A stretch of DNA of 64,000 nucleotides from Raillietiella orientalis (Eukaryota), in the NCBI GenBank assembly GCA_036172245.1, contig JAYWIR010000044.1, positions 434,001 through 498,000 on the forward strand, written 5' to 3'. How positions within the stretch are numbered: the stretch's first letter is position 1; each line of letters opens with the position of its first letter. The notes below the pieces were generated by a model that saw only the letters and a program-made list of their open reading frames with translations, was not told the DNA's origin and made no database searches. Below are positions 6,043 to 55,150 of this stretch, in pieces. Made by a program: the position numbers and the translations under genes.

Positions 6043-6990
6043 CATTCGGGAGTGGCACCGGTGGTCGTTTAAGCCGGAGACCCCCGATGAAGGCCAGAGC
6101 AAAGGGAGTCGACCTTCGAGTCCTTCCAGGAATCAAGGAGTGGGGAGTTCCCCCTCCGTTCGTACAACGGAGCGTGAACCCCCGTCACCGGGGGACCGCC
6201 TCCGCTTTCAAGATGGAGCGGGAGTCCTCACGGGCACTCTCCAGTTGTTCAAAGAAGCGGACCCTTCCTGTTGCTGGAGGGACCCTCTGAGTCGTCACCT
6301 CTTCACAGAGTGCAAGGAAGCAAGCGAGAGCGATTCCCTGCGGGAAGCTGCAGCGCCCCCTCTGAGTTTCGGATGCGTCCCTTCGGGGTTCTCTTCAGAG
6401 GAGTGAATAGGAGCGGTTCCCATGCGGGTTCCCTCCGGAGAAGAAATTCCTACTAGCGGATCCTTTCAGGATTCCCTTCGGAGAAGATGAAATGGAGAGG
6501 GCCACCCCCCTTCCAGGGGGTGTCCCTCCAGAGAGAACGAGGAAGAAGATTCCCTTCGGGGTTCCCCTTCGGAGACAACCAGGGTGGGAGGTGCGATCCC
6601 CCCTGTCTGTGGGGGATCCCTCCCCAAGCGTGAGAGGAACGGACTCCGAGTCCCTCCTGGATTCATAGGGCGGACCCATCCAGGGGTGCCCCCTATCCTG
6701 AAGAATTACACGCCCCCCTGCGGGTTGCCGCAGGAGGAGAGGCGTGGAAACAAAGCACTCTGTTTACAAGAGCCACGTGCGCCGCGAGGCACGCGACCGG
6801 CTCTGCGGTACTTAGCGAACCAGCAGCGAAGACCATCTTCGCCTTGCACTGGAGTACCAACTGCAGCACAGATAAGCGATCGACCTTGCCGACAATGCAC
6901 CAGGAGTGGGGCTCATTTACACGGCGGTCTAGCCTGTGTGCACAGCAAATCTCCCTGGGGCGGAAAGTCTATGCTGGAGCAAACCATGCC
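6043..6990 (-). mobile_element. LINE 3' part: degenerate zf-RVT region followed by a 700-nt GC-rich multi-hairpin 3' region
   Basis: LLVHCRQGRS...EDGLRCWFA (6820-6910) parallels HLL.DC...R..W...DLLRRFF of other copies. 6044-6746 is a dense hairpin array ending (minus strand) in TAAACGACCACCGGTGCCACTCCCGA, a variant of the family terminal motif. Confidence 0.55.
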
Positions 6991-7239
6991 TTCCTGATTT
7001 GTCTCCGATGGCGCCGTCTGGATCAAATGACCGCTAGAAGCCTCACGTTTCGACATGCTGACACTCCTCTGTCGGCAAAGTGGACAGTCCAATAGCCTGT
7101 ACTTCTCTCATTGTCCAGCACAAAGGTCCTGCCTTCATTTGTACTGCAGAAAACGATCCGAATGAAGGCCTCATTCTTGCCTGCCACCATGGAGCACGGA
7201 ATCCTGAAGCAGTTTCTAATCTATTCTGAGCATAAGCTG

Positions 7240-7370
7240 CTTTGAAGTCAGCCCAAGGCGCACTTCTCTCGCTCTGTCCTGTAGAGAAGCAGCCCATGAC
7301 CATCAACGACCACACTTCCTCGTTCCCGATGCAATAATCGAAGGTGCTCTTCGTGAACGTGTAGCTGGAG
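7240..7370 (-). mobile_element. AP-endonuclease C-terminal relic of a LINE
   Basis: SYTFTKSTFDYCIGN...GQSERSAPWADF resembles the TF...S.IDY...SDH.P..A.F pattern; same strand and upstream of the 6043-6990 piece. Confidence 0.35.
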
Positions 7371-9000: not shown

Positions 9001-9224
9001 AACTTCATCATTGACACTTCCAAAAGGTTCAGCGATGCATACTTAATCATAATTTAAGGCGTAGTTTCCACAAGGACAAATCACAACATCGCTCTGGCAG
9101 AAGCTTATCTGTCCAAACGCCCGGATGAACCTGAAATATAGCTGAGACAACTTCGTGAAGAAGGACCATCTCCGAAACCCAACACAATACCGAGGACAAC
9201 CAGTTGAAACTTCAATGTTGAATG

Positions 9225-11972
9225 CAAAATGTTCATGCAAAGAGCTCCTGCGCACACCACAACACATCGAACGACAGGGCGGTCAAGAGCCTCTGTGATT
9301 AATGCCCCTCAGCAACACACACAAAACAGCTAAACACACAAAACACACATACACAACACACGCGACAAAAAAGAAAAAAGAAAAACCGAACCCTCTGCGA
9401 TCTTCGAGGAAAAATACAGCGAGGACACAGAACGGGACAGCAGCGCGTTGCCTGCGATCCCCAACGCAACCATCGAATTTGCCGCATAGTCACCATCTCT
9501 CGGCACCCTCCAAGAACTCCTCCTTCGCTAGAGAGTGCAGCAAGGCTCCAGGCAACGAGTTGCCGCCACGAGTTTCCGTAGCTACCATGCCAAAGAAAGC
9601 CGCAACGGACCGCGAATGGGGACTCACGCGTTTCGCAGACTTCAGACGAGATTTCGCCGCGACTGCCCCCACACGGCACCGGATGCTTCCTCCGCTACGC
9701 ATCCGGCGTTCAACAGCTCCGTGGAGGCAACCCATGCTGACCTTCGCAAGCGTGGTCTCAAGTTGCAAACTGAACTTGCGCGAGCACCGCCATTCGGTTG
9801 CAGGAAGGAAGACATCCCTGACATCAGGGGAGCGAAAGATGCCGTGTGACCCGCCGAGCGCGTTCTTCACCTCCCGCAACGATCCAGAGGAAAACAAACG
9901 AACCCCGTGCCGAACCAGATCCGTGCTGACCGAGCCCGTATCCAGGCAACCGATTTGCAACTGGACGGTAGGCAAGGCGGTAGTCGGGTAGGAAGGAACA
10001 TGGACGATCTGCGCAGCCAAGTCCATGGCGGTGCCCTCACGCCTGGAAACTTCTTACAGAGGTCGGTGAAAGTTGGACCCCATCAAAGTTGGATTTTCTA
10101 CGCTGCCTCAGCACGAACTGAAGGGTACGTCATCCATCCATGAAGAACGAGAGACGAAGCGCCCCGTCCCAGACAATCGCCTTCCGTAGGGTCCGACGTC
10201 AGCGCAGGCAGAAACGCTTCCGAGCACGCGTCTCCAATGGTCTCTCCTTGCTAGCTCGGAAGCCAAATCTTTCTCTTCTTGTCCAAAGTGATGACCAGGA
10301 CGCCGGCAGACGAAGACGAGGCGCGCGAACATCCCGAGCACGCAGATTCGACATTCCTGGTCTTCACCGCTCGTCCGCGCTCGCAAACCGCAGCAGGGAC
10401 TGCGCTATGCCTTGCGGGAGGTCACTCTTCGCTAAATGTCCACCGTGGTGGAGGAATCGCTCCACGGCACGGGAGCGACCGTGGCTTATCCGCCACCCTC
10501 TGTCTGGGCTTCAGCGACAGCGTGTTGCGCACCCAACGCGAAGAGTGTCCCGACCGGCAGAATGACAACTCGTTCCCTCCTGTCCGCGGGACTCCGCTGA
10601 ACTGGAAGATCGTCGACCGAGCTGCGAGTTGCGGGGCGACTGCTTCCGCTTTCAGCTGACAAGCAGCGGAGTTGCCCAGCGAACAGAGGCGGCTGTCTTT
10701 GCAAGACGGCATCTCTTTGCAACCTCTGCTGCGACGACGTCTGCAGGGCCATCGCTTGGAAAGTGAGCGATGGCAATAAAAGTGGCACTGGGAAAAAGAA
10801 AATTTGGGGGGGCAGACCGGCGTGACGCCTACGGGCACGTGCGCCCTGGACGCACGGCACTCGTAGCGCTTCAGAACGGTAGGAGTCGTTGTGGATCTCC
10901 CGGGCGGTTTTGACTTGAAGAGGAACTTGAACTGGAAAGAGGATTGACTTGAAGAGGGAGAGAAAGAAAGTTGTCAACGATTTCCGTGCCTTCCCTGAAG
11001 GTAAACCCTGGGTATGCTTTGGCGGTTTGTTGCTTCCTCGTGATGGAATGCTGGATCCGCGCGTTCGGGTGCACTTGAGAAGAGTCATGCCTGCTTTGCG
11101 TATTGATCGTTGGCGTTCTCGTTGGCGCGGTGCCTTCGTAGGTGAAAGAAGGTTGGTTCCCTTCGTCCGTAAGAGCTCTTCGATTGCCAGATGACGAGGA
11201 AAGAAGGTCGACGACCTGCTCACCATGTCTTCAGGGCACGGGGAGATGGGTGACTGCAATGTGTGTGTTCTCCCTCTTTGGAGTTGATCGGCGATTGGTG
11301 AGGGAGGTGTGGCAGATGTGACCCACTCCAAGCAATCCTGGAGGAACCAGGAGGTCGTCGCTATTCAGAGCATCGTGATCAATCCGGCATGGACACCGTC
11401 TTCGTCGCTGACGTCACCAGAGTCCGAATCCCGTAGTGGAAGCTGCTCTTGCTGCGCACCAGAAAGGCAGGTGTTAGGGTCGCAGCTTGTCTTACCGATT
11501 GACTGAAGCTGCATCTTTTTCTTTTCTTTTTCGGGAGCCGGAGCCTCTCTCCGCGCGAGACGATTCCAGGGTACGAGGCTGAAAGGCACACCACGCTGAG
11601 AGCACCGTCTCTCGTTCGATCGGCGAAGTTAAGCTGCATCTTTGCCCCTACTCAACGACGAATATCTGTCACCTAGGAACAGGAGTTGGGAATCGCAGCT
11701 TTTTTCTCTTGCTTCCCCCGCACTTCTCGCTACCCTCATTCTGCTCTTCTCCGTCGTTTTTTCGTCCCTTCGTCCTCCTCCTTGTCTCCCTGCTTCCATC
11801 CTGTTTTTTTCCTTTTTGTCCTTTTCGTGCTCTTCTTCTTCTCCTCTTACTCCCTTCATCCTCTTTCTCTCCGTTTTTTCTTCTTTGATCTTGTCGTTGC
11901 CATCGTCACAATGATCGTATCCGTCTTTGCCGTCACCGTCACCGTCATTCCGTCTTTGTGTTGCGCTCGCTC
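9225..11972. repeat. Left arm of 2.7-kb inverted repeat
   Basis: Reverse complement of 21167-23957. Mirrored ORFs have identical translations and coordinates summing to 33139 (e.g. 10486..11331 and 21808..22653). Confidence 0.97.
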
Positions 11973-24479: not shown

Positions 24480-25255
24480 ATCATTGAACTCCCTTAGAAA
24501 TTGGAGAAGCCCTAAAGAAAACGGTCTATATCCATCTTCGTCTGCTCATTGGTTGGCTGTTCCCTTGCGTTCTGGAATAGTGGCGCCTTCTCCCTCAAGT
24601 GGCAGTTGTTGGCGTTGCTGGTGGTGCATGGAAGCATCCCGTGCAAAGCGCGACTTTACCACTGCACACGGGGGGCGTGGACTCTTAAGTGTGAGAGGTG
24701 AGGGAAGAGGGAGACCCTCCTGCAACTGCTGTTGAGCTGTGCTGCCCTCTGAACCCTTTGGGATCGAGTCGCGGCGTTGCTATGAATCCTGACGGGCGGT
24801 CCCAGGGACATTTGGAGACGTGCGCGTGCCGCTCTGCTGCCAGCCCCGTCCCTCGCGTCTGCTGCGTCTGCGGAATCGGAACGCGGGAAGAAGAGGCCAG
24901 AATGACAGAGACACCATCCACTGGGCGTGGACCTTTCTGAGGACCGCCTAGAGATAGCCTCACCTGGACACTATCCAAACAGAACTTTGGAGGATCCTGA
25001 ACAGGAAGCCAGAGAAGCCTGGCAGCGTACCGTGATCCCTTCCTCGATTGCCCACCTCTCTGTGCATGGACTTTCCTACTCCGTTTTGTTTGTTTATTTT
25101 TTGTTTTCCCTTCCCCACGCTGCAGAAGGGGACCTTGCCGGTCTGCGTACCGGTCTTCAGCAGGTTCATTGCCCGTGGTAGAACCAACGGTTCTACCAAA
25201 ACATGTATTTTTATTACTTTGATTAATAAGTGCCCTGGCATAACCGATCGATAAA
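24480..25255 (+). mobile_element. LINE 3' end: zf-RVT, C-terminal extension, 3' UTR
   Basis: WQLLALLVVHGSIPCKARLYHCTRGAWTLKCER*GKRETLLQLLLSCAAL*TLW (24600-24765), PHL motif at about 24960, T-tract, hairpin 25176-25198, terminal motif 25225-25255. Confidence 0.8.
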
Positions 25256-26340: not shown

Positions 26341-26379
26341 AGCGGAAAGTTCTGAGCAAACAGTAGCTTCAACGTTAGC

Positions 26380-28670: not shown

Positions 28671-30119
28671 GAAGCCGAGTGCTCGCTGTGCAAATCCAAA
28701 CTTCGAGCTCCCTCTATTCCAATTTCATGAAACCACTGAGGTCACGTTGAGAGCGATGGAAACGCAGTTTACCTGCTCAGGAATTCGAGTCTTTCGAGTA
28801 TTCTGAAGAGTATTTTCCAGCTAAGGTGTCCACGGATGGATGGAATCGAAACATGTGGGAACATTATTATCCTACGGAGACAGCGGCAAAATGAACTCCG
28901 TGTACTGAGAACAAAAATTTCGCCTCGTCCAAGAGGAACGCTGGCTTAGCGCTGAGCGTTCATCAGTGAAAAAATCTCCGAGGTGAAACGCACCCCAAAG
29001 AAGAGTCGCAGATCTTTAGATTCAAGTGCAAGAAAGATGGGTACCCCTGGGGAAAAAGGCATGCAGCTTCCCGAGACATCACTGCATTGGTGGATTTCAA
29101 GGACATGCTGCGATGCATCCAGTGGATGATCTGCTTCAAGATCGCTTAGAAATCTCGCTGGATGCATCAAGCGAGAAAAGGACTTCCGACTCCCAGGGTT
29201 GCTCTTTGATTTCATCGGGTCACGACGGAGTAAAGCAAACCAAAAACTGCATGAATGCTTACTCTCTTCCCTATTTAAAGGCGGCACGCCACTCTCTTCC
29301 CTACGAATCACCCACGACCTTGGCTTGTGTAATGATCGCTCTCAACGGGAAGTGAAACGCGGAAGGGGCTCAGCCTCTACCCCGTACCATTTTTCAAGAT
29401 GAAGCATTCTATTAGGATGAAGAGGGCAGTGCACCAGTTCATCTAAGAATAGTGACATGTGCTTCTCAATGAGCTTCATGGTGCAAAACGGAATGAATTA
29501 GCAAAAGGGCAGCCATGACCGTGGAACCCAAAATCTTCGAGCGTGCAGCCGCCCTCGCGAACAAGCGTCCGAAAGTGTTACAGATCTGGGTATGCGTGTG
29601 CGGCATGCGTGGTCCTGTACCCGTCAGCAGTAAACTCGAGGATTCTTCACTTTACGACCCATCGCGCCGGAACAAAACTGAGTCACTGGATAATCACGCA
29701 TTTGATTCCTGGAAACAGGATCCTCCGAAACTCTGCTTGCGTCCATTCTAATTTCTTGATTTATTGATTCAAATGCACACTCTGGAAGTACAGCTCTTGT
29801 ATACACGTCCGCAAAAATTCTTTCAAGAAACGGCAAACTCCCAGCCTCCATAGTAGCACCCGCTTCTGTCTGATGACTGGGTGGATGAGAATGAGCAAAT
29901 GGTCCAGCATGTGCTTTTCCCGCTAATATACCACTCCACTCCAGATCTTAGACTCTTTCGAGATCGCGTAAGCCGAACTCGAAAGCTTTGCTGCCGCCTC
30001 GCAACAAAACCATCTGCTATCATCAGCAACGCTTCCCACGATAATCTATTTCAACATTACAGTTCTCTTCGCCAAAAACTTCCTTGTCATTTCAAGATAG
30101 AATACCAGACTGACCTGGC

Positions 30120-30406
30120 TTTTAGCCAGTTACGCCAGGACATCTATTTAAAAACTGAACCACCAGTCAGAGGGCAACAGTGTCCGCGAATACCAAGGAC
30201 AAAGCGGGAGTTGATCGGAAATGACCACAAGCACGCAGGCTGGCTTCTATGAAAGCAGAGTACGAAGAGAGAGGACAACGAATAAATACAAAAAAGACGG
30301 GAAGGCAGGGACAGGGGTCTTTGGTTTTCTACCTTCCTTCTCTGCAGAAGCACATGTTTGTGGTGGCGACCTCACCCACGACCTTCTCTGGCAGATGAGA
30401 CCACCA
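30120..30406 (-). mobile_element. LINE 3' end (WSHL plus 3' UTR)
   Basis: WSHLPEKV, T-tract, terminal motif 30120-30150; direct homolog of 39390-39677. Confidence 0.75.
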
Positions 30407-30910
30407 GGTGGCTGTCATGCTGGTGGACTTCCTTTGGTGCGAACGAAACACGTGGCGGACTGTCATCATGGCGCGGGCACAGCATCTCGTTGCGATCACA
30501 GCGCCCCAGTGTCGTCGCGGCGAAGTGCGACGCCGAGGGAGGCCATAGCGACGGGGGGGCTGTCCCGCACGCCATCCACTTCCTGCAGATAGCTTTGGGA
30601 TGGCCCCACCTGGAAAGGGAGAAGGAGGAGCTCGCTGGCATGCTTCAACGGATGCAAAGGCCCCCCCACCACGAAATGTGATCCCTTCTCTTCCCCCTAA
30701 CTAATTTTTGTTTTTTTTTTGTTTTTATTGTTTGTTGTAGTTTGCTTCCTTTTTTTCTCTTTTCGTTTCATACCCCCTTCCCCTTCGTGGACGTGGTGGA
30801 CCTCTCCGACTGCCCCTCTTCTTTCAAGTATAACAATGGGATTTGATGGGCCATCGGCCCCATCGATTACTGTAACGGAATAAACGCCCCGGAGTACCCG
30901 GGTGTGAAAT
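30407..30910 (+). mobile_element. LINE 3' end, internally deleted copy of 42623-43655
   Basis: ALGWPHLEREKEELAGMLQRMQ, long T-tract, terminal motif 30879-30910; lacks the zinc-finger segment 43023-43552. Confidence 0.8.
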
Positions 30911-30914
30911 CCCG

Positions 30915-31300
30915 GCGCCATCGTCTTCAGCTTGCCTTGAATGAAGAAGCGCCGCAGCAAGTCGGAAGCGGAAGAGACCTGCTGATGACCGAGGCTGGTC
31001 TCCGCCACAAGTCGCCCAGGAAGTCCAACGGGAGTCGCGGGAACGATTCCATCGCCCCGCACCTGGAACAGTCCGGGGAAGCAACTTCCCCGATAAGCAG
31101 ATGTCTGCGCTGATTGCGTTGGAGTCTTCAGTGTAATAAAACAGTAGAGCATCCCGTTTTCCACTGCAGTGGGAACACGGAGGTGTCCGCACCCAGGGGA
31201 AGGACCGCGTGTTCATCGGGGGACACACCAAGCAGATCACTGCACCTGAGAAGTCCCTTTGCCTGGGGACGAGGAGTGGCGCCACCCACCAACTTGCTCG
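30915..31300 (-). mobile_element. LINE ORF2 C-terminal fragment, tail-to-tail with the preceding copy
   Basis: KGLLRCSDLLGVSPDEHAVLPLGADTSVFPLQW...DLLRRFFIQG. Confidence 0.7.
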
Positions 31301-31619: not shown

Positions 31620-31930
31620 CGATGTAAACTCACGCAGAACTTCCGACCGCAGGACTTATGATGAGGCTCCTCGCATGCAGTGGACTGACGACAGGGATGC
31701 GACTTGCTGTCGCGTCCGCGCCGTCGTCGGGTGCTCCACGTATTGGAGAAGGAAGGGCAGCGAAGGGAGATTACTTTCATGGCAGGCGCCTACACGAGGA
31801 CGGTTGCTAGGTGGCCTCACCTAGAAGAGCAAGTGAGGGCGGAGATGGCCAGCATCCAGCGTCGGCTCCAGGAGGAAAGAAGGGCCGAAACTGGTGTCCA
31901 CTATCTCTCCCCTCCCCTTTCCTTTACAGT
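31620..31930 (+). mobile_element. LINE ORF2 C-terminus
   Basis: AYTRTVARWPHLEEQVRAEMASIQRRL aligns with AAGWYHLPEEVRNEISGIQRRL (39930 ORF). Confidence 0.65.
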
Positions 31931-34900
31931 GGTACCTCGGTACTCGTCGGTAATTCGTTCCAGAACTCTTGACGAGTGCTGAAACCAACGAGTACCGAGC
32001 GAGATTCTTTCTAGGCTTCGTGGCATCATTTCTAACCATTTTAGAACCCAAGACTAACGCTTAAAATGCACATAAAGTTACAAAAAGGAGCGATTCGGGA
32101 GGCACTTTATGGAAGTGTTTGGCGCTGTTCCCGAGCTGGCATGAGACAAAAGTGTTCACTTGTGTTCCGTCATGAGAGCGGGGTGTCGAGTTCCGAGCAG
32201 GCGCCGACTGTCGAAGCACTTCTCGTCAAAATGCGACGAGAACCGAGTTTGGCGAATTCCGACACCGTCGAGTGCCTAAGTACAATTGTATTTTGTTTCA
32301 CCATCCCTCCTCGTTCTCTCCAGACCTTTCCCGGTTTTTCATTTTCACAAGGAGCGGTACCAGAGACTCGTGCCCATCCCTCCTGTATTTCCATGATTGT
32401 TTGCTGTCCTTTTCCTCCTGTTCCGCACTTTCAGAACCCTCTTTCTGAACTTCCTTTGTCTCCGGTCTCTCTTTCACCCTTCCATGATGAAAGGAATCAA
32501 AGAGTGACTTCTCATGCCTCAATCTGGTGACGTGTTTCCTTTTGATATTGAGCTGAGCGCTTCAAAACAAGGCAGCCTCATCCAATACAGTCTTTCAGTT
32601 GCGCTACCAATTAAACATCTGTTCATTACGCCAGGAAGACCACGAAAGGGATTTCGTTTCCTTCTGAGAGAGTATCAAATGCGTTCATCCTGCAAACAAT
32701 CTGAAACATCATCTCGAGTGCTCCCAGTAGATTGCGCCTCTTGTGCGAAAAATCGTTCGGGATGCACGGATGAAGGACTCCACGAAAGAAAAATCGAATT
32801 TCAGGATTCCCGATTGAAGATAACGATGCTCTCATCTGAAGACACTGTCTACCTCTTACTCTGATTATCCCGGATGCTTTGCTTCTTGCCTTCGGATGCA
32901 TCCTTCCAATGGGTCATGTCGGGCGTTCTCAGAGCTCTGCATCATGGGAGGCCTTTTGCGCAAAGGACTGCATTGGCAAGGACTTGCCTGTCATGTGCAA
33001 GCATCTACGCCTTGTTTCCCTGACGATCAGAGCATTTTCCGGAAGTGAACCAGAGCAGATTCGGGATCGAAAGCTGGAGCCACAAGAGTGCCCTAATCTC
33101 CTCTTTGGGAGGCGCACGCCTTCAAAATGGAGTACCTTTTAGACAACGTAAGAAGCATTCTAAATTTTCTCCCCATCTAACCTAGCCGTGACCTGAATAC
33201 TAGGAAGTTCTCTCAATAAGATGGGAGAAGTTGTGCTTTTTTTTTCCTGATGAAATGAGGCAGGGGCTCTTATCTTCCGTCAGTTGCGATGCCTTCTTCG
33301 AACAGGTTCCTCTGCTTCCTTTTCCCGAGTTCATCTTTCGCCTCCGTTTTGCTTCGCTAGTTCTTAGCTCTCGGCGTTCGCAGTCACCGCCGAAAAAGAC
33401 AAAGAACTTTTGAAGGGAGTACCAGCAGTCCAAGGATCTTCGAAACCAAAGGCTTGACACAGAGAAATGGTACTTACCAACACTGGATTAGCTGGTTGCT
33501 GCAGCTCGTGACTTTTATTTTCAATTCCGTAGTCTTTATGCCCGCAACTTTCACAACAAACTTGTCTGATTCTATGTGGAGTCCTTAGTACGTCTAGGGC
33601 TATGATCCTGTTGTCTTCGGAGGAAAAGCGATCCTTTCGGCTGTGCATTTCCTCCGTCAACACAGAAACCTGAGCTCAGTACGACCAGCAGCGCGTCTGA
33701 CTTTTTGTCTCAAGGTTCCTGGAATTCTCTTTGCACAGAATCTGATTCCTAGTCCACAAATTCACTCTTCTTCGATGTCTTCTTCGATGCTTTCAGTAGG
33801 TTCCGTGGATGTCTTGCCGTCCTTCCGCCAGCGTCGAGGTCGCCGCGTATCGTTCATGTCCCCTCTGGATCAAAGCTGGTCTTCCTTGGCTTACGACCGT
33901 TGTCGGGTATGGTCAGCGACTGGGGTTCGTCGCCGCGGTTCATCTGCCTCTACCTCCCTGCCTGCGGTTGTCTGAAATGCCCCTGGAGCATGCTGTCCTT
34001 CTTGCTCCACTGTTCTTGCGTCTGCCTCTGCGGTTCAATCGGAGGATGTGCCATCCAATCCGTGACTTCGCTAAGGGTTACTGGAGCGGATTAGAGGCAG
34101 AAAACTCTGAATTCGCAATTCTCGTTGCTAAATCCTTATGAGCTGACGCTGGGCATGCTGACGTCGATGGTGAGGCGACAAGCAAGGAGATCATTTTGTC
34201 TTCAAAAGGTGAAGGAAATTTTGAGGCCACCAACGAACGAAGGGAGAGACCTCCTGCAAAGTATGGACGACACCCGATGGCGGACTGGGAAGCACGAAAA
34301 GCGACCGAGAAGGATCCTCGCTTTACCAGGATACGAAGCTGGTCATGAGCGCTGCCAACGGAAGACTGTGGTCTTCTTTTAACTCTACTACAGAATAAAC
34401 CCTAGTAGCTATTGCTGGATGGATGGCCGATAAAGGATGCATCACAAGGGATGGAGTCTGCAATGGAAAACAAAAGCAAGAGGAGCTGCAGTGATGTGAA
34501 GAGAGGGCTGAGAAACAATTGGGATTAAGTAAGCTGATTCAGAGGGAGAAATCATTTTATTTTTGAGGTGAAGAAAGGACAGAGCCTGAAAATTGGTGAG
34601 TGAGCTGCATCCAAATGTATTCTAAGCGGTTCACAGCTGACCTGAACTTTTCGTAGCTCGCCATTGAGATACAATTGGAAGCCAATGCACATTGGAGATC
34701 ATTCTTTCCGGGCGCTCTGAAGATAACCAGATGATCAAAGAGCACCAAGCATCTTTGCATTCATGTAATCAAAAGCAGGAATGATGGATGTTTATTTTTA
34801 TTCACTTTGACTGCGTCCGCAGGGATGCGTGAGGTCTGAATATGCAGCATCTAGAAAGACTTATCCTCTCTTGGCTATAGATTTCGTCGCAAGTCCTCAT

Positions 34901-39292: not shown

Positions 39293-39389
39293 TATTCGGG
39301 TACAGCACTGGTGAAAGCCGGAAAGCGGATGCCCCCTTGAATGGCTGGGATTGGAAGTCGGCCGTTCGGGGTCCCTCCTGGAATCAAGG
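39293..39389 (-). mobile_element. Distal piece of the GC-hairpin 3' region (homolog of 6044-6138)
   Basis: GGAAGTCGGCCGTTCGGGGTCCCTCCTGGAATCAAGG vs GGGAGTCGACCTTCGAGTCCTTCCAGGAATCAAGG; ATTCGGG...GCACYGGTG...AAGCCGGA is also shared. Confidence 0.7.
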
Positions 39390-39705
39390 TTTTTACCTGG
39401 TGACGCCAGGACGTCTGTTTAAAAACTAAACCACCAGTCAGAGGGCAACAGTGTCCGCGAATACCAAGGACAAAGCGGGAGTTCATTGGAAATGACCACA
39501 AGCACATAGGCCGGCTTCTACGAAAGCAGGCTGCGAAGAGAGAGGACAACGAATAAATAAAAAAAAGACGGGAAGGGAGGCACAGGGGTCTTTGGTTTTC
39601 TACATTCCTTTCTCTGTAGAAACTGATGTGTGTGGTGGTGACCTCATTCGTGACCTCCTTTGGCAGATGAGACCACCTTGCAGCTACCCTCATGGAGGTG
39701 ACTGC
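39390..39705 (-). mobile_element. LINE 3' end
   Basis: MRVAARWSHLPKEVTNEV, T-tract, terminal motif CCTGG-CGTCA-CCAGG-TAAAAA. Confidence 0.8.
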
Positions 39706-40300
39706 TTCTCACCCGGGTGCGCCGGGGTGTTTATTGCTAAACTATCCGGGAACAAAATTTCCGGACAAAGAACAGAAAAACGAAGGGAGGGCTCGCCGAC
39801 ACTCAGGTCAGTAAATCCGAAAGTCCGGAACGGGAGGGAGGGGGCCACAAATACATATTTAAAAAAATAGAAATAAAAATATGGGAAGGGTAGGGGACAT
39901 AAGTCTTTGGCTTCGGCCTTTGCTTCCTTTCAGAGCCGGCGTTGGATGCCGGAGATCTCGTTCCTTACTTCTTCCGGAAGATGATACCAACCGGCAGCCG
40001 ACGTCATGTTCTCGTCGGCTATTCCGGTGGCCTGTCGACGAATCGCCTGCTTCTCCAGCTCTCGGTGGGCCTTGTCGATGGCGCGGGTGCAACAGACCGT
40101 TGCGACCACCGCACCTAACGACAGGCCATTTGTCATGAAGAAGAGGCGCATCAAATCCCTTGCCGTGTTCCCCTGGTGCAGGAGAGCTGAGGCCAGCCTC
40201 CGCCACAGTCCTTGGAGGACACCGCAGTCCAAGAGCAGATGCAGGAGCGTTTCTGCCGCTCCGCACCGTTTACAGTTCGGGGAGACAACTCCCCAGAAAG
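39706..40300 (-). mobile_element. LINE 3' end with intact CCHC zf-RVT
   Basis: SPNCKRCGAAETLLHLLLDCGVLQGLW is open to the stop at 39930; T-tract; terminal motif 39706-39735. Confidence 0.9.
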
Positions 40301-41229
40301 GAAGTAGCGCGAAAGTGGTCCATGAGAGCTAATCGAGGTTTCCCGAGGGGCTTGTCCTTTGAATTTTCAGAATATGCTTCTTTGCCGGAGTGTATGGTCG
40401 CTGCTTTTGAATTCCCAAAGACGTGCTGTTGAATGCACTCCATCGGTAAGGCGGAACGAAAGATGAAACCTGGAGCTCCCCAATCAGTCGCTCCTGAATG
40501 ATCGAAAGAAGTGTGTACAGACACTGAAAGAGCGAGCAAAGTTCCTCGAGGACTCGCAATTACCGGCTTCTCAGAACTTTCGCTACCGGCGAACCATGCA
40601 CTTCCTAGCCCCATCTACTCATCGCTCGTTATCTATACTGGAATACTTGATTCCACTGTATAAGAAAGGACCTACAATTTGATGATGCCTACGTATGAAA
40701 CCTAAGATTGCCATGAAATCGATAGACAAATACTGTCTGAAGTCTTACGATGAACCTCAGATGCTGGAACACATTTCTCCTATTACTGCAGTTGAATGCT
40801 ACTTGTCCACTCCTCTTAAAATGGATATATGTTTCGTTAGATAAATGAATAAGAGACCATATGTAAAAAATCTAACAGCCAAGGAACAAAATCCTAAACT
40901 GAATTCGTGTACTTTTGTCATATTAGAAAATTACTGTAACTAATAATTTCTAAAGAATTCTTCTTCTTTGCTGTGAGCAAAATGCCAATCTTTGCGCAAA
41001 CTTCAAAATATTTCGATAAGATTCACAGAAAACTACTTTTGAGGACAACATCCTTGATATCTACATCTGCATTCATCAAGTCATTTTTTTTTCTGTTTAT
41101 TTTTAAGAGAAAAAAAGTCAGTAGCGACCTGAAGGGGAGACCGTTACTATTGGCTCAGGATGACGAAAACTCCTTTTTGGTTCTTTGTCTCTGTTTTCCT
41201 TCCAGCTTTTTTTTTGGGGGTGGTTTCAT

Positions 41230-41430
41230 GATTGGGTCGCTAAGTACCGAAGAACAGTTTGCCTTGCAGCTCACGAAGCTCTTCAACAGTGTCCACGCCA
41301 CCTGAGAGGGAGTGAGGACTCCTCAATTGAAGGAGCAGCTTTCTGGATCCAAAGGATTTCCTGGATCCCTGCGGATCCAGGAAGGCTCCGAAGGAAGAAG
41401 TCCTTTCCCCTCACTCTCCTGTTTGCCTCC
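41230..41430 (+). mobile_element. LINE C-terminus plus GC-hairpin 3' region fragment
   Basis: TCGCTAAGTACCG is shared with about 6806-6818 (minus strand); 11-bp hairpin TTCCTGGATCC-CTGC-GGATCCAGGAA at 41358-41383. Confidence 0.55.
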
Positions 41431-41431
41431 G

Positions 41432-42330
41432 ATATCCACTCGGCCACGCCGGGGCACTCATCAAAATTAAAAAACAAAACCATAAACTGTGGTAGGGCAC
41501 GTGGTCCCACCACACTCCGTTTGTCCACGTATCTGCCGGGTGCGTGGACTGGGTGGGGGTCACCTCGACAGTGGAGGGGGATGGGAGAAAACAAAAAGAA
41601 AAATAAAATAAGAGAATGAATAAAAACCTTTGAGAGGGTCAGGAGGGGACTACAGTCCACCGAAGAGAGTCCGCATCCTTTCCAGGACGCTAGATCCGTC
41701 CGAATAGGTCCCACGTGGGACTGTCTGGTCACTATCCGCAGGAGGCGAGCCGCGAACTGGACGGCATCCCTCCGGTTCTTTCTCTGTCGGTTTCTCTCCC
41801 CGCAACGGCACAATCCCACGGATGCAGCAAAGTGCTGTGGGACTGCGGATTGATGCAGGGAAATTCGCCCGAGAAGCAGCCACAAAATGACCCTGGGGTG
41901 CCATTAAGGATCCGCAGGGTCGTTCACAAGGCGTTCCCATTGGGACAGGAGGGCAACACAGTCCACAAGCAGGTGAGGGAGGGATTCCCACTCCCTGCAC
42001 CTCCGCAGCAGTTGGACTCCACAGCCTGCCGGGTCCAGTGAGACTGGCGGGAGTTGCACGGGAGACCCCGGTGCAGCAGCAGAAGTGCTGACTCCTGTCA
42101 ATTCAGAGGAAGGGCTCGGTTGTTCTTCAGAGCTGGGGACCACTCGAGGTCTTCCTGTAGGATTCCCAGCAGCTCACCTTAGCGCAATAGTCCTTTCGGT
42201 GGGGCGCTTGGAGTAGCTGCGACCGTTATTTGATCCGTGGCCCAACAACCTAATTCCTTCTTCCGAAGATCTATTTCACAACTGACCTCCCATTTGACCT
42301 GCTGGTTATTTCCTTGGCGCTCCCTGAGCG
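41432..42330 (-). mobile_element. LINE 3' end with zf-RVT
   Basis: VKWEVSCEI...KGLLR...LLHRGLPCNSRQSHWTR...RRCREWESLPHLLVDCVALLSQW; T-tract; terminal motif 41432-41462. Confidence 0.85.
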
Positions 42331-42385
42331 AGGACACAGCCGCAGCTAGGGAGGTTCTTTGCATGGACGCAAAGAATGACGTGGC

Positions 42386-42620
42386 CTGTCCCCGAAGAAC
42401 ACGCGGTCCCTTCCCTAGGTGCGGACACCGTGTTCCCACTGCAATGGAATGCTTCTTCCGACTGTTCCAGGTGCGGAGCGAGGAAATCGTTCCCGCGCCT
42501 CCCGTTGGACTTCCTGGGGGACTTGTGGCGGAGACCAGCCTCGGTCATCAGCAGGTCTCTTCCGCTTCCGACTTGCTGCGGCGCTTCTTCATTCAAGGCA
42601 AGCTGAAGACGATGGCGCCG
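42386..42620 (+). mobile_element. LINE fragment (inverted copy of 30915-31226)
   Basis: EHAVPSLGADTVFPLQW...DLLRRFFIQG; nucleotide match to the reverse complement of 30915-31226 with an internal deletion. Confidence 0.75.
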
Positions 42621-42622
42621 GG

Positions 42623-43720
42623 ATTTCACACCCGGGTACTCCGGGGGGTTTATTCCGTTACAGGAATCGATGGGGCCGATGGCCCATCAAATCCCATTGT
42701 TATATTTGAAAGAAGAGGGGCAGTCGGAGAGGTCCACCACGTCCACGAAGGGAGGGGGATGAAACAAAAATAGAAAAAAAGGAAACAAACTACAACAAAC
42801 AATAAAAACAAAAAAAAAACAAAAATTAGTTAGGGGGAAGTGAAGGGATCACATTTTGTGGTGGGTGAGGCCTTTGCATCCGTTGAAGGATGCAGGCGAG
42901 CTCCTCCTTCTCCCTTTCCAGGTGGGGCCATCCCAAAGCTATCTGCAGGAAGTGGATGGCGTGCGGGACAGCCCCCCCGTCGCTATGGCCTCTCTCGGCG
43001 TTGCACTTCGTTGCGACGGCACCGCGCTGCGATTGCGGCTACAGGCGTCATGGCGTCTCGCACGAAGAGGGGCCTCAAAGAGTCTCTGGAATCGTCCACG
43101 GGGCGCGGAAGGGACGCGGAGAAACGTTCCCACAGTTCCCGGAGGGCGACGCACTGCACTAAGAGGTTGGAGAAGGTCTCCTTCTCTCCACACCTGGCAC
43201 AGTTCGGCGATGCGCTCCCCCTTGTCCAGTGGTGCCGGCGCGCATTGCACGGAAGACCCCAGTGGAGTACCAGCAACGCCGATTGCTGCCACCTGAGAGG
43301 AAGGAAGCAGCTTTTTGTCCATAAATACGGGGGGAACTTCCAACTCTTTGGGCCGAATGGAGAAGAGTTCGTCCCAACGTTTCAGTCCTTTGGAGACGGT
43401 TCTTTCTGTTGCCGCGTCAGCCAGCTGCCTCGGAGTCCAGCAAACGATAAAGCCCATTCCTGCGGGCCGAGATCTCGCAGGAAACCTCCCACTTCACCGG
43501 TAGGCCGGTGCCATGTACCTCGACAGCGGAGGACACTGCTGATGCGAAGGGGGGGCACCGTGATCGCAACGAGATGCTGCGCTTGTGCCATGACGACAGT
43601 CCGCCACGTGTTGGAGTTTCGTTCGCACCAAAGTCCACCAGCATGGCAGCCACCTCCATTCTGATTGATAAAGGGTTTCCCCCAGAATATTTGAAAAGGA
43701 AAGAGTGAGTGGGTAACAAA
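42623..43720 (-). mobile_element. LINE 3' end with zf-RVT (most complete copy)
   Basis: KGLKRWDELF...LLVLHWGLPCNARRHHWTRGSASPNCARCGEKETFSNLLVQCVALRELW...GWPHL; T-tract; terminal motif 42623-42654. Confidence 0.9.
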
Positions 43721-43749: not shown

Positions 43750-44520
43750 ACAGATACGACAATGGGGCTGTAGTCACCATGAGGCTGCTCTCACGTAGGT
43801 GGCGGTCTCGCAGATGACCTCTCTTCCTTGAGACTGAGACTTCAACATATGGCGGGTTGCGAGTGCTGTGCGGGTGCAACGCAGCGCTGTGATCATGGCT
43901 CTTGTAGAGAGTCCGCCTCGCGCGAAGAATCTCCGCAGCAGGTCCCCTGCACGTCCTCAGGGTGCAGGAGTGCTGGTCACTGGAAAACTCCCCGGAGAAC
44001 ACCGCAGTCTACCAAGAACACTCGCTCACCTGGCGTCCAGGCGATCTAGGTCACGATGGAGATCCCTCCACAGTGAGGCTCGATCATTGCACTGAGATTG
44101 GACTGACCTCTGCGGTAACTACAAACGTGGGTCAATCAAAAGCAACAATTTTTCGAAGATCGCATGTGGGGCCTCCGGGACGCCAAACGACGGACCAGGA
44201 ATCCGCCATCTCTTCGCCAAGCGCGCGGACCGTCCGTCTCTTTCCTGATGCACAGGCGTCCTGTCCGCATCGTGCGAGGATGGGCGTGACGGGGTCGCAG
44301 ATCCCTCGGAAACCAGGATCCTACGCTGGTTGCACAGGAGACTCCAGTGCAGAAACAGCAGCCCATCCTGTTTCCACTTCAAGGGATACACCGAAGTGTT
44401 TGCGCAAATAGGAAGTACCACGAGCTCTTCGGAAGACACACTCAGCACTTCTGTCCACTTCACTCTTCTGAAGAGTGGCGGTGTTCATCAGCTCTGGGAG
44501 TTTCCTGACTCCTGCAACGG
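43750..44520 (-). mobile_element. LINE ORF2 C-terminal fragment
   Basis: KWTEVLSVSSEELVVLPICANTSVYPLKWKQDGLLFLHW...VDCGVLRG...DLLRRFFARGGLST. Confidence 0.7.
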
Positions 44521-49396: not shown

Positions 49397-49720
49397 TGCT
49401 CACTCGGTGGCGCCGGGGCGTTTATCTAATAAGGGACATTGACAAATTGGGAAAAACTGCTCCCGGATCAACAAGAGCGTGATTGGGAAGCAAAAGACGT
49501 TCAAAGGAAGGGGAGCACCCACACGCAGGTCGGGATCTCTAAGAGTCCGGAACGGGAGATAGGGGGACGAGCAGTAAATAAAAAAAAGGTGTAAAAAAAA
49601 AAGGGCGCAACGGCCGTTCCTTCTTTCTAAACCGATGCTTCATGCTGGCGATCTTCTTCTTCTGGACTTCTTCTAGGTGAGGTCACCCAGCAGCCGTCCT
49701 CATGCAGACGGCTGCCATAC
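49397..49720 (-). mobile_element. LINE 3' end
   Basis: MRTAAG*PHLEE, T-tract, 3' UTR similar to 39706-39880 (shared CTCCCGTTCCGGACT), terminal motif 49397-49426. Confidence 0.75.
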
Positions 49721-49721
49721 G

Positions 49722-50160
49722 TCTATGTATTAATGTATACATATGAACCTAATATCTTACTAACTATTATACATATCTATATTTTTCTATCTCTGTCTCT
49801 CTATCCATATCTAATTTATCTATCTATTGCTCATCTATCTATCTATGCCTGTCTATGTCTATCTGTCTATTTATAGATAGATACATAAGAATAATGGCAT
49901 ACATGCATTTCCTGTAATCTATATGCAAATGGTATTTATATATGATAAAGATATTATAAATTATCTGAATAATATGCGTGTTGATAAATATTAATGCAGT
50001 TGCATGTTAAAATAAAGATGTTTATTAATTTTCATATCAATATACACATTAATATACTTAATAAGCATATTTATATTTTTATGATCTTTGTAGGATTTGG
50101 TAATCTAGACATTTATCTAGGTGTAAATATATGTATCAATATACGTAACACAGATGGGTA
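49722..50160. repeat. AT-rich low-complexity tract with decayed (TATC)n/(TA)n
   Basis: Composition and TATCTATC/ATATAT runs. Confidence 0.8.
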
Positions 50161-50400: not shown

Positions 50401-53400
50401 AGGTGCAAAACGTGCCACCAATGTAGATAAAGGAAAATTGCTTGCATATTCAGATAATGAGTTGCATCTTCGTTCTCGGCGGGCTCCCTGTTGCGAGAGG
50501 AAGGATGTATAGGTTGTGGATGAAGAACGGTCGGATGAGCTGAAGCGGAGAGCGGAGCAGCTGTTCTCCTTTCAAGCAGAGAACGACAGGCGCTCCTCAC
50601 ACCAAGGTGGTGGACACACCGTCGCCTGCAGGATTCAGCGCCGAGACGACAGCTTCCCCTGAAAGTGTGTCCATCTCATCCATCTTCTTTCCTCTTTCGT
50701 TATCCTTTCTTCATACGCAGATTCACTGTACACTGGCGTAACAGATCGGGCTGTAGCGGATCGTTCAGTAACGTCATTTACACTGCGGAGCCACCTACCA
50801 TCTCTAATTCACCATTGGCTAGTTGTCTCCGAGCCTCGGCTGCCCACAGCACACAGAGGACCACTTGTCCATCTCCAATGGAATGCGGACGCACTTGTAA
50901 TTCCTAAAAGATTCTCAAATTCTTTCACTTGTTGAGGACCAGAAGTCCCTTTTTGAACTGCGATGGCATGGCTTCTAAAGACGGACCTTCGGACTTTCGA
51001 AACGGAACACATTCGTGAACTGATTCAGGAGGGACCCTGAAATTGCCTTCTGGCTGGATGACACTCAGATTGGCTAGATGAGAACATTAGACACGGCCAC
51101 CTTGCAGATGGGGAACCTTGTTGCTGCCTATCGGAACACGCCCTTAACCCGAAGATGGATGAAAAAGGTAGGTGCGATATCATGCGAGCACATTATCACT
51201 TCAGAGTCACATAGTCATCGAAGTAACACGAGGACCTCAGCCGCTGGCTTCGCGCGGCTACCCTAAACAGAGTCCATAATTAGAGATGCAGCACTTTTGT
51301 TATCTTCCTTTTTTTTTCCGAGAGAGGATCCACTCACAGCAAACATGCAATCCAAACTCCTCTTTACGTCGCGTACGTTATATCGTGGCCTGCAAAAGTC
51401 TAATATAGGCACAAAACCAGTGTCCCTCTGTCCCCTGATATAGTTACCAACCCTCGCGTACTGGCATGTTCCCCATCCAAGATGTGCCAGTTTTATTCAG
51501 TGAGGAATGTGTCAGCAGCTTGATGTCATTTCCTGATTTAGGGATTCGCAGCCCCGAAGATTCGTCGGATGCAATCTTGTGCCCATATTTCACAGCACTC
51601 ATTCCGGGGAGTGGACTGCGAGGAATGTGCGCATTCATTTTGGAAGGTTCCTTGCCCGTGTAATGTTGTGAAGATGCCATCCACTGTGAAACCAAGGACA
51701 CAAAGTAACCCTGATTCACAATCCAGCTCCTGTCACGCTGGAAAAGGAGTCAAGTTCTTCGTTTATTGCCAGCCATCCAACTCTGGAAGAGAGGGTTTCT
51801 CCTCTGCTACAAAGCCTTCAGCAGTGAGAAGAGATCAGGAAATGGAGAACGCTGTTTCCAGTTTTGCAGGATTCAGAATCACTTGGGAGCTAATCGGATC
51901 AAATGACTGAAACTCGGATTTGTTCGGCGATGCAATTCTGATACATTTTTGCTGCTTTCCGCGCCCAGCCTGCTTTTTCTTTTCTTTGTACTCAGGAGCC
52001 GTTGCTGCACCAAGTAGGAACGTCGGAGAGGTCTGAGGCAACGCGGACACGCGGGGAATAACGGGACCCTCTCTTCCCCTGCTATGCATTCTAGTTGAGC
52101 GTGAATCCTGACGTTTACAGGAGAGAACGCCGAACGATCCACTCCTAATTCACCCGAAGCCTGAAACCGTCCCCAGGAGTCATCTTTCGGGGAAATTCGA
52201 AACCGAGCTCGCCATCTGTCCTTGAAGGTATTCGAACCTGCGACTCCAAGTACCGCGTGACCACACGGCTGCTGGCCACATTCCTAAAATCAGTGGACGG
52301 AAAACGGCACGCAAAAAGGGTTAGTCCACGGAGACAGGTTCGAAGAGGACGAATATCCGAGCACTGGAAAGATGACATTCCGTCTGTTTCACAGCAGGGT
52401 ATCTGCACTCGTGGAGCAGGCTGCCGAACTCTTTTATTGGCTGGTCATCTCTGTTCCCTCTGTGCCTGCCCGACACCTATCAGGCTTTTACATGTCCCAT
52501 AAGAAAAATGAGATCGGAAAACCAGTAGGGAAGAGAAACAAACACATTGCTGGCACGGATGGGCACACCTTCGTGCTTTAGAAGTGGTCACACAAGGACT
52601 GCGAGCCTGGAGGAGCTCACTTGGTCTGAGATCACCGAAGGCGGTCTGAGATCAAGTAAGGTGAAGGCGTTGCTGTTCACGAGGAGGAGCACAGCAAGTG
52701 TCACCCCTCCTCTTGAGAAAGGCAGGAGCGCGCACCACTACCGACACACCCCTTCCCTTGAAAGCGCTGCAGACGGTGCATCTAGACGGAAAAAAAATAG
52801 GAAATCCCAGGTTTCTGTGGCCCGTTGGAGCAAGCGGGCAGGAACCTATAGGTGGTGGCCTTTGAAGCGAATCTCGCTCGGAGATGCGCAGCCCACTGCA
52901 TAAGGTGCACCCTCCGAACACATAGAAACCATCGTAACGTTCGTCAAGGACTTACCGGTGTAAACCGACAGCGACGACCTTGCGAATGACTCCATCAAAC
53001 AAGGCGTCCAGGCTCAATGAAAAAAAAAAAAAAGAAACAGAAACTGAAGAAGTTGATGGAGTGCCACTGGTGTAGTCTCCTCGTCTCTGGAGGGAATATG
53101 TCCCCAAACTGTATAATCTGCGGGAAGGTGGAATCGTTTCTGTCCCGGCATGATCGGGAGAAAAGTTGGTATGCAGAGGATTCTAACAGCGCAAGTCAGT
53201 GTTCAAGATCTCAAAAAAAAAAAAAGCAAGGTCATCAACCGGATTTCTCTGTTCCTCGTGGTGACCAGAGCGAGGATATTTTAGCACTTTTGAGGGGCAA
53301 GGATTCCGAGGATTCCATATGGAATGGCATCCATTTCCAGCAAGCATCAGGATGCATCTCGAGAACCTTCAATACCGGAGAATACGGAAGCAAGGAAAAC

Positions 53401-53760
53401 CGAAAAGAAATCAAACCGGAAAATCTTTGTTAGGCCCGAGAAGGAGGCGGTATGGGAATGAAGCAGCGGGAGCTTGCGTCAAGACTTTGGGACGCAGAAA
53501 GTGACCCGCGCCTGGGACGATAGCCCGTTGGTTTTCCACATAGAGTATGCAGAATGGATGATTGGTTCAGAGTGACTTACGCCAGCGCTCATCCACGGCA
53601 GGAAGAGAGTGGGACATCACTGACTCCACTCGTAGAGCAGAAAGCAACAGTTGGTCATCGACAAAGCCCTCCTAGTGGCGCCGAAATTTAAGGAGCCGAA
53701 CGGGAAAGAGCTTGCAAGATGTTTGCTTACGTCTGCACCACCGACGACAGCGACATAGGC

Positions 53761-55150
53761 TTTCACCAGGTCACTCCGGGGTATTTATTCATGAAAAAGA
53801 GATAGACAAATTGGGAATGCAGATGCCAGGAACAGCGAAAAGGAAGTTCGAAGGGATAGTTCACTGGGACGCAGGCCGGGTCCTTAGGAAATCCGGAGCA
53901 AGCGGGAGAGGACAATGAACAAAAAAAAAAACGAAAGGCGGGAAAAGACGTCTCTGGTATCGGCTGCTCATTCCTCCTTAGAACAAGAACAGAATTCTGG
54001 CGATCTCCAGCCCAACTTCTTCTTCCAGCTGAGATCACCTCGCAGCCGCCTTCAAGTAGGTGATGGCCATGGGGTGATCTCCCTTCGCTGCGCTTAAGGA
54101 TCCAACAAATGGCAGGCTGTGACGTTGGCACGGATGCAGCATGTCGTCGCTGCGTCTGTCGTGACTCCGTCTCTCACGAAGAATCGCCGCAGCATGCCCT
54201 TAGCAGTTCTCAGAATGCAGGAGCACCGAAGACATCCTCCACCAAAATTCCCGGAGGGCACCGCAGTCCATTGAGAGATCCGGGAACAATTCAGTCGTCC
54301 CCTCACACCATTGGGGAAGCAACCTCCCCGAAAACCAGGTGTCCGAGCTGGTTTCACTCGAAACCCTAGTATAGAAACAGCAGCACACCCTGTTCCCACC
54401 TCATGATGAACACTGCAGTGTTCACAGCACATAGGAGGTACCACAGGTTCTTCAGAAGGGCATACTTAAGAGTTCATCGAAGCAATCCTTTCGTCTGGCA
54501 GCAAGGAGTGGCGGCATTTACCAGCTTGTTCCAGTTGTTCAAGAGCTGGCAACATGGATGGAGACGAAGAGTATGCCAACATGACATACTCTTTGTCTAC
54601 TGGCAACATCCATGCGGTGTAGCTCAGCAAGTGCAAAAGCGTACTCCATGCTGAGACTGTATGCAAAATGCGAGAAATCTGAAGAGCCAGGAGTAGGTAC
54701 TGAATCGAAATCGGATAGGGGCATGTCCAGCAAACGACTGCACGTTAGCGATGCAGAAATCCGATCTGCCGCAGCAGGTGCAGGATGATGTGCTCATATT
54801 TTATCACTGTGATCTCTTGTGCTCCAGGAAACTGATCCTCTGGACACTCGACTCACAGGAGTATGAAGAAAAGGAATTCTTGCGCCTCTACGCTTTCCTT
54901 TAGTTTCCAGACCACTGGCAAGGACCGGCATGTGATCAAGAAGGTGATCAAATCCAGAGTATTCAACCAAGACAAAAACACTGAATGTGCTGTTTGAGAG
55001 AGTTGGCAGTGACCACAACCACGATCCGATGATGAGGATGACAGTCGCCTCCTTCGTAAATAGCACCGTGACTAGAAGAGCACGAGCAAGAGAAATGACA
55101 GGCACAGAAATAGCGACTCCTATTGATACGCAGCATCGAGATCTGGAACA
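53761..55150 (-). mobile_element. Collapsed LINE: endonuclease end, C-terminal region, 3' UTR
   Basis: LDHMPVLASGLETKGKRRG (cf. SDH.PV), MDCGALREFWW, MLRRFFVRDG...CCIRA, T-tract, terminal motif 53761-53789. Confidence 0.7.

Follow-up and report, generated by a model that had tools for sequence, protein, structure and literature searches.

Template choice by the reverse transcriptase of long interspersed elements (LINEs) separates ‘stringent’ from ‘relaxed’ L1s: stringent LINEs mobilise short interspersed elements (SINEs) with matching tails, while relaxed ones make processed pseudogenes from any polyadenylated mRNA. Here we describe a ~29-nt block found at the very end of nine decayed LINE fragments in a 64-kb stretch of contig JAYWIR010000044.1 (the whole stretch is referred to below as the window). 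The block opens with an AATAAA-like hexamer; after three further bases come CCYGG and CCRGG, separated by five bases, and TGA or TAA with a short run of A closes it. A first-pass annotation of this DNA had set stringent L2-clade elements against poly(A)-dependent mammalian and angiosperm L1s, a contrast that is incomplete, given that stringent L1-clade lineages with conserved 3' hairpins have already been published. Such hairpins are known from monocots, Chlamydomonas and Dictyostelium, and the idea pursued here is plausible and not new in kind.

In the monocot ‘1a’ L1 lineage (LINE1-1_ZM), divergence over the last 45 nt is 0.144, compared with 0.570 overall, and the tail carries a hairpin with compensatory changes that is shared with ZmSINE2/3 of maize and with sorghum SINEs (Ohshima 2012, PMC3472496). 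Stringent recognition was proposed as ancestral in the plant L1 clade in the same work (PMC3472496), and its account of L1-clade stringent tails is repeated in a 2013 review (PMC3747384). Chlamydomonas provides an L1-clade LINE and a SINE with a shared 3' tail (L1-1_CR / SINEX-3_CR), and of 15 green-algal L1 families just 2 have an (A)n end (PMC3472496). Slime-mould elements are placed in the L1 clade by the 2013 review (PMC3747384), and for the C-module of the non-LTR element TRE5-A of Dictyostelium, Siol et al. 2011 (PMC3159450) report that point mutations in the stem of a predicted hairpin in the 3' untranslated region (UTR) cut retrotransposition by 98-100%, the authors proposing that the protein of the second open reading frame (ORF2) recognises the structure. 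A position-conserved 3' stem-loop that may serve reverse transcriptase recognition has also been proposed for human L1 and Alu (Grechishnikova & Poptsova 2016, PMC5135761).

The block in the window resembles the monocot 1a tail in that the elements form an L1-like group whose last tens of nucleotides are far better conserved than the rest, and in that the conserved part contains a possible hairpin and is read as stringent recognition. In monocot 1a, however, the stem varies with compensation around an unchanging UCU loop, CGAG follows as a constant 3' flank, the end is poly(A) and there are SINE partners; in the window it is the stem sequence that stays constant, MGYNN forms the loop and UGA the flank, poly(A) is lacking and no SINE partner was seen in 64 kb. 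The two monocot hallmarks, loop UCU and flank CGAG, are absent from the window, where the flank is TGA/TAA, in a comparison made with the wording of the paper only and not with its sequences. Most green-algal L1 families likewise have no (A)n end, but L1-1_CR has poly(A), and other families end in short tandem repeats such as (CATA)n or (CA)n, which are absent from the ends described here. A predicted hairpin near the end of the 3' UTR is also shared with TRE5-A, where it lies in the last ~50 nt and is essential; that hairpin belongs to a multi-stem fold in an 87-137-bp module of an AT-rich, tRNA-gene-targeting element and has been tested experimentally, whereas the window motif has one predicted 5-bp GC stem known from sequence alone. 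UnaL2 and ZfL2 of the L2 clade similarly need a terminal stem-loop for recognition by their own ORF2 protein and lack poly(A), but they belong to a different clade, and their ends carry (TGTAA)n-type repeats that serve in template slippage (PMC3747384). Finally, the human L1 stem has 8-10 bp with a bulge, stands beside a long poly(A) and is purely computational, compared with 5 bp and no poly(A) in the window.

A conserved block at nine LINE 3' ends

The letters of all ten stretches that the first-pass annotation had quoted as motif sites proved correct (10/10), and nine of the ten lie at LINE 3' ends. The tenth, offered as a “variant” at 6043-6072(-), is unsupported: it has no match to a nine-site covariance model at E <= 10 and no LINE remnant upstream, and was rejected as a member. 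Each of the remaining nine motifs terminates a decayed LINE fragment and has the same orientation as that fragment, and the nine align without gaps over 39 columns to the consensus AATAAA-YR-C-CCYGG-(5 nt)-CCRGG-TGA-A (TnnTnAATAAACGCCCCGGCGTAACCGGGTGAnAA in full). Within the block, the 5' arm CCYGG is intact and invariant (9/9 sites) and thereby better conserved than the AAUAAA hexamer, which is intact in only 4/9, one whole subfamily having AAYAGA. The loop is 5 nt long at every aligned site (9/9), as had been claimed, and takes the forms AGTAC, CGCAC, CGCCA, CGTGG, AGTGA, CGTCA, CGTAA and CATAA, or MGYNN in general, with the first three bases (MGY) largely conserved.

Conservation was measured over 34 independent pairs of copies, with the motif block defined as positions -9 to +19 from the stem start. 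Mean identity was 0.66 in this ~29-nt block; three blocks of UTR upstream of it gave 0.49, 0.47 and 0.52, the flank downstream gave 0.47, and shuffled controls gave 0.46-0.49, the same level as the upstream UTR and the flank. The block is thus the sole conserved part of the 3' end, and these background-level identities bear out the earlier description of the UTR as barely alignable; between lineages, UTR identity was 0.49-0.63. Because decay after insertion is uniform and cannot yield such a contrast, the block must have been constrained in the active lineages, and this block-specific conservation is the strongest result in favour of a function.

Searches of the window gave a consistent picture. 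The pattern CCYGGN5CCRGG, with at most one mismatch, occurs 19 times against 6.18 +/- 2.23 expected, none of 100 shuffles reaching 19, and seven of these matches are sites of the first-pass annotation; the 5'-arm-plus-loop pattern RCCCYGGMRYRNCC, at the same tolerance, occurs 10 times against 2.72 +/- 1.60 expected (0/100 shuffles as high), again with seven of those sites among the matches. A covariance model built from the nine sites and run unfiltered over the window retrieved the same nine only, at 36-43 bits, the next match scoring 11.2 bits (E = 2.4). Since that search is circular, the model being tested on its own training sites, a second model was built from four lineages only, and three of the four held-out ends were its best non-training matches in the window: 53761-53789(-) at 23.2 bits (E = 3.9e-4), 39390-39421(-) at 20.4 bits (E = 0.0026) and 25225-25255(+) at 15.4 bits (E = 0.075), with the fourth, 30120-30150(-), weak at only 8.6 bits. 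Block identity and held-out recovery together show a 3'-terminal sequence kept among otherwise diverged lineages, as in stringent-type LINEs. Two further candidate sites were rejected, one at 53144-53158(+) that scored 9.4 bits and lies inside a plus-strand CCHC coding remnant, and one at 4318-4332(+) without a nine-site model match at E <= 10. The exact motif pattern had no match in a prokaryote-only genome collection, Rfam 15 had none at gathering score over the whole window, and Rfam at E <= 5 over 39300-42800, a segment with five motif sites, gave two unrelated weak matches, none overlapping the motifs.

The motifs are identified as 3' ends of LINE fragments because CCHC remnants and an ORF2-end box stand upstream of them on the same strand. 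The distance from the CCHC remnant to the start of the motif is close to fixed, at 417-466 nt in five copies, and the ORF2-end box (..GW.HL.E..) is common to all copies, ~300 nt before the motif, a position that gives a 3' UTR of ~200-230 nt. The sole Pfam match among 253 stop-free frames of at least 90 aa was zf-RVT at 42986-43381(-) (E = 2.9e-4, 21.9 bits), joined by a second, weak zf-RVT match at 39933-40328(-) (E = 0.0033), and both fall under the curated cut-off of 27.5 bits. A CX2CX7HX4C knuckle is readable in translations upstream of the motifs, e.g. CKRCGAAETLLHLLLDC, and tblastx ties the copies together at the protein level, e.g. 24594-24896(+) with 43297-42995(-), 39% over 101 aa. 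A profile of five window pieces searched against 1.84 billion representative proteins yielded 10 matches at E <= 1e-3, seven of which carry zf-RVT (six above the cut-off) and three of which are repeat artefacts. When mapped back on the window, the seven zf-RVT proteins located CCHC remnants at 24591-24797(+), 30978-31115(-), 40140-40313(-), 41910-42097(-), 42448-42555(+) and 43019-43327(-), and a weak one at 54206-54307(-). Word-index protein searches with the zf-RVT ORF against longer proteins and with the five-piece alignment against proteins of near length gave no match, and a protein atlas search returned unnamed clusters plus one zf-RVT cluster at rank 10.

For the first-pass label “L1/Tx1-like”, the one line of support is the weak match to the zf-RVT-type CCHC knuckle. 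Pfam found no reverse transcriptase or endonuclease domain in the 253 frames, in 132 upstream frames of 40-89 aa, or in 40 upstream frames at E <= 1, and no reverse transcriptase, endonuclease or ORF1 is recognisable in any copy in the window, although these are short 3' fragments, in which such an absence says little. CCHC knuckles occur in other LINE clades too, and membership of the L1 clade is putative.

The nine ends correspond to eight insertion events in seven lineages, in line with the first-pass estimate of about seven independent ends, and homology confirmed the two pairs of close relatives noted there. In the first pair, e30879p and e42623m, the copies are 94% identical and homology extends ~245-320 bp past the motif. 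As this shared flank is an opposite-strand LINE CCHC fragment, the pair is one nested insertion later copied by segmental duplication, and the homology past the motif is no evidence of an element reading through it. In the second, e39390m and e30120m, identity is 88% and homology ends at TAAAA(A/G)CC, with unrelated flanks; these are two insertions of one subfamily and mark the true 3' terminus.

Tails, termini and a proposed recognition element

The short A runs reported after the motif were confirmed in every copy: 1-5 A follow in 9/9, and no copy (0/9) has more than 5. The sequences after the stem are TGTGAAAT, TGAGAA, TGAGCA, TGGATAT, TGAAAG, TAAAAA, TAAAAG and CGATAAA; none of the nine copies has a tandem repeat there, and the poly(A) tail typical of mammalian and most flowering-plant L1s is absent from all nine ends. 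The motif is terminal in the three copies whose end can be bounded, and in one of them, e39706m, the tail is confined to within 7 nt of the stem by the start of the next LINE fragment, e39390m. The flank after the A run, 3-10 nt past each motif, is mostly A-N-C-C (AATCC, AAGCC, AAACC, CATCC), for example at 30908-30912, 39386-39390 and 53756-53760; in raw counts, a C lies within 1-3 nt after the tail in 8/8 insertions and CC in 5/8. These bases could still belong to the element, as its real end, or they could reflect the target sites that its endonuclease prefers.

The interval from 25 to 54 kb is best explained as a nest of old, mostly 5'-truncated LINE 3' fragments from several deeply diverged lineages of one group, and the ORF2 of that source group, on the same best explanation, ends in a zf-RVT-type CCHC knuckle. 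Each lineage would retain one and the same terminal module of ~29 nt, placed ~200 nt past the stop codon of ORF2. In RNA terms its AAUAAA-like hexamer is followed, 3 nt on, by an inverted repeat rich in GC (CCYGG, MGYNN loop, CCRGG) and by UGA plus 1-5 A. Through this module the ORF2 protein may pick its own RNA, in what would be ‘stringent’ recognition, and the module may make target-primed reverse transcription begin exactly where the 3' UTR ends; we infer all three steps involved, namely hairpin formation, protein binding and the positioning of initiation. The near absence of poly(A) in the copies would be explained if recognition via the module is stringent. The block is most economically read as a cis-acting 3' recognition element, and we give about even chances to the claim that it serves both RNA choice by the ORF2 protein and the initiation, at the end of the UTR, of target-primed reverse transcription. 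Within the first-pass proposal of a structured 3' recognition element, the position at LINE 3' ends, the conservation above that of the UTR and the lack of poly(A) all held up, while an RNA structure is not demonstrated.

The tails and termini bear also on the possibility that the block is a 3'-end formation signal, in which the hexamer and GC hairpin would define cleavage or termination of the transcript and the A runs would be the remains of short or decayed tails. Only 3 nt separate the AATAAA-like hexamer from the stem, and from the hexamer to the end of the copies is ~20-25 nt, the usual distance to a cleavage site, and the terminal position bounded in three copies is consistent with such a signal. 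The hexamer is nonetheless less conserved (AATAAA in 4/9, and AAYAGA in one subfamily) than the CCYGG arm (9/9), which argues mildly against the block being purely a polyadenylation signal, and normal polyadenylation followed by poly(A)-primed reverse transcription would leave A-rich tails, whereas none of the nine copies exceeds 5 A. We regard the signal as an unlikely account of the block, although 3'-end formation and reverse transcriptase recognition are mutually compatible and not exclusive roles.

Evidence for and against a hairpin

In the proposed register of five pairs, 86.7% of 45 cells pair, compared with 22-56% when the partner is slid by 1-3 columns. The middle pair, at positions 17/27, occurs in C-G, U.G and U-A states and is paired in 8/9 sites. 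The compensatory change cited in the first-pass annotation, CCTGG-CGTCA-CCAGG versus CCCGG-AGTAC-CCGGG, is real (C-G to U-A, in e39390m) but unique, accounting for 1 of 45 cells. CpG decay is unlikely to dominate as the source of this CCTGG/CCAGG double change, the observed/expected (o/e) CpG ratio in the window being 0.66-0.91.

Several results weigh against a structured recognition element. Covariation among the nine copies was not significant: with one compensatory change in 45 pair cells, 166/500 column shuffles reach the observed pairing and covariation counts. The consensus fold of RNAalifold is reduced to the inner 3 pairs (-1.75 kcal/mol), a minimum free energy fold with the hairpin in register is obtained for only 4/9 sites, and single-sequence z-scores range from -1.82 to +0.48. 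The arms are conserved as sequence and not as variable pairs, and the 3' arm (CCGGG four times, CCGAG twice, and CCAGG, CCTGG, CTGGC and CCGAT) is more variable than the 5' arm, a pattern equally expected of a site recognised by its sequence. Two lineages have one C.A mismatch (CCGAG) in common, and the antisense strand pairs as well (3 G.U versus 3 C.A cells), so that the sense RNA is unmarked. Only eight insertion events are available. No target-site duplications were found when the 7 kb upstream were searched for exact repeats of 9 nt or more, a search with only two chance-level matches, and most termini are consequently inferred. Lastly, the unfiltered model search found no non-autonomous element with the same tail in the window, every site having LINE sequence upstream, though 64 kb is too small to decide the matter. 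The stem is accordingly a reasonable hypothesis and the hairpin is not proven, nor could it be from the present data, which offer too little variation in the arms and too small a number of copies.

The same pattern raises the possibility that the block is a linear motif with an incidental inverted repeat, its site being read as single-stranded RNA or DNA or annealing to the nicked target. An invariant 5' arm, a largely conserved MGY in the loop and a varying 3' arm would all be expected of such a motif, as would the non-significant covariation, and the C within 1-3 nt after the tail in all eight insertions, CC in five, also fits it. The pairing itself speaks against it, however, at 86.7% of cells in register versus at most 56% when slid, and the lineage that changed the middle pair on both sides kept pairing while two others hold U.G there; moreover, similarity in the flank ends within a few nucleotides (0.47 in the downstream block). 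On balance we find the linear motif rather unlikely. A block without function, produced by chance, by recent shared ancestry or as the repeated target of a site-specific LINE, is very improbable and largely refuted, for although there are only eight insertion events, one pair is a segmental duplication with homology past the motif and Tx1-type relatives are site-specific (PMC3472496), the pattern counts exceed those of all 100 shuffles, held-out lineages are recovered, the UTR beside the block is at random identity, so that recent ancestry cannot account for the block, and the block is not target DNA, because the downstream flanks show no relationship to one another outside the duplicated pair, where the flank consists of a LINE fragment on the opposite strand.

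Returning to a cis-acting recognition element, a more specific version would have a deeply diverged group of L1-like LINEs with a minimal module, made of the hexamer and a 5-bp GC hairpin with the end 6-10 nt later, in a genome with little CpG depletion; this module would couple 3'-end formation to the initiation of reverse transcription, bypass poly(A), and have been kept while the UTR diverged to random identity. We put this version forward tentatively, as possible but doubtful. If it is true and the host lies outside plants and animals, it would be an independent data point for Ohshima’s proposal of ancestral stringent recognition in the L1 clade. One more L1-like group whose tail is conserved and free of poly(A) would support relaxed recognition as the exception in that clade, and the host genome would then be predicted to contain SINEs with the same tail but few processed pseudogenes. 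The 29-nt block can also help to locate the 3' ends of heavily decayed LINE fragments when this genome is annotated.

Individual copies and the LINE-fragment nest

The copies lie in a dense nest of LINE fragments between 24500 and 54500, which could reflect self-targeting or simply an old repeat-rich region. The leftmost is the 3' fragment e25225p (24591..25255, plus strand), with its CCHC remnant at 24591-24797 and a motif at 25225-25255 (CCTGG-CATAA-CCGAT) whose stem has decayed to 3 pairs. Next comes the 3' fragment e30120m on the minus strand (30117..30520, 5' limit approximate), with a motif at 30120-30150 (CCTGG-CGTAA-CTGGC) that forms 4/5 pairs, two of them G.U. We had considered that the ~300-bp copies might be a SINE-like unit with a shared 5' end, and rejected this, given that e30120m continues upstream as LINE coding sequence with the ORF2-end peptide. 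Its relative e39390m (39388..39705, minus strand) is a 5'-truncated copy with a motif at 39390-39421 (CCTGG-CGTCA-CCAGG) containing the compensatory U-A pair, and abuts the tail of e39706m in a head-to-tail junction at 39705/39706. Between these two relatives the motif block is just 79% identical, compared with 98% in the 50 nt of UTR next to it; relative to e39390m, three changes are clustered in the 3' arm of e30120m, two of which keep pairing as G.U.

The duplicated pair belongs to a segmental duplication of a LINE-fragment composite, 30406-31240 versus 42390-43655, that is 83-94% identical, the 30-kb copy being without ~515 bp and the 42-kb copy without 75 bp. Its motif-bearing members are the 3' fragments e30879p (30492..30910, plus strand; motif 30879-30910, CCCGG-AGTAC-CCGGG), which carries the internal deletion of ~515 bp relative to its duplicate, and e42623m (42623..43550, minus strand; motif 42623-42654), which contains the zf-RVT ORF at 42986-43381. 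Opposite-strand CCHC fragments abut these motif-bearing ends at 30911 and 42622: the flank shared with the 42.4-kb locus (30911..31240, minus strand) holds the LINE CCHC remnant at 30978-31115, and its duplicate, the plus-strand LINE CCHC fragment at 42390..42622 (remnant at 42448-42555), forms the 3' flank of e42623m. A further ORF2-end fragment, x31730p (31730..32000, plus strand), is without the terminal motif because homology is lost before its 3' end.

The other copies are all on the minus strand. The 3' fragment e39706m (39706..40330) has a motif at 39706-39735 (CCCGG-CGCAC-CCGGG), a CCHC remnant at 40140-40313, a zf-RVT ORF at 39933-40328 and a 3' UTR of ~200-230 nt. The 3' fragment e41432m (41432..42350; motif 41432-41462, CCCGG-CGTGG-CCGAG; CCHC 41910-42097) and the 5'-truncated copy e49397m (49397..49725; motif 49397-49426, CCCGG-CGCCA-CCGAG; ORF2-end box ~49611-49718) each have a C.A mismatch in the stem; otherwise diverged, both carry GAT for AAT in the hexamer together with the same CCGAG 3' arm, which may be a subfamily state that tolerates the mismatch. 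The 3' fragment e53761m (53761..54430) has a motif at 53761-53789 (CCCGG-AGTGA-CCTGG) with a C.U mismatch, and a degenerate CCHC region at 54206-54421. Further LINE remnants were seen at 43552-43655(+), 44287-44400(-) and 53086-53139(+).

Other features of the window

No conserved gene was found in the window, and Rfam and tRNA scans of it were empty. Its base composition is ~50% G+C with no N; G+C drops to 0.35-0.38 over 58001-62000, and CpG o/e is 0.66 over 56-64 kb, compared with ~0.50 G+C and a CpG o/e of 0.78-0.91 in the rest of the window. An inverted duplication of 2.8 kb, 9196-11987 / 21152-23985, is 97.4% identical over 2836 bp with its arms ~9 kb apart, and its long frames (e.g. 10489-11364 on the minus strand, 292 aa) have no Pfam match and look non-coding. 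Tandem repeats include an array at 36998-37750 with periods of ~101 and 205 bp, made of AACATGAAGT-like subunits with 65-95% matches, and a 70-bp unit repeated 2.1 times at 98% identity at 26376-26523.

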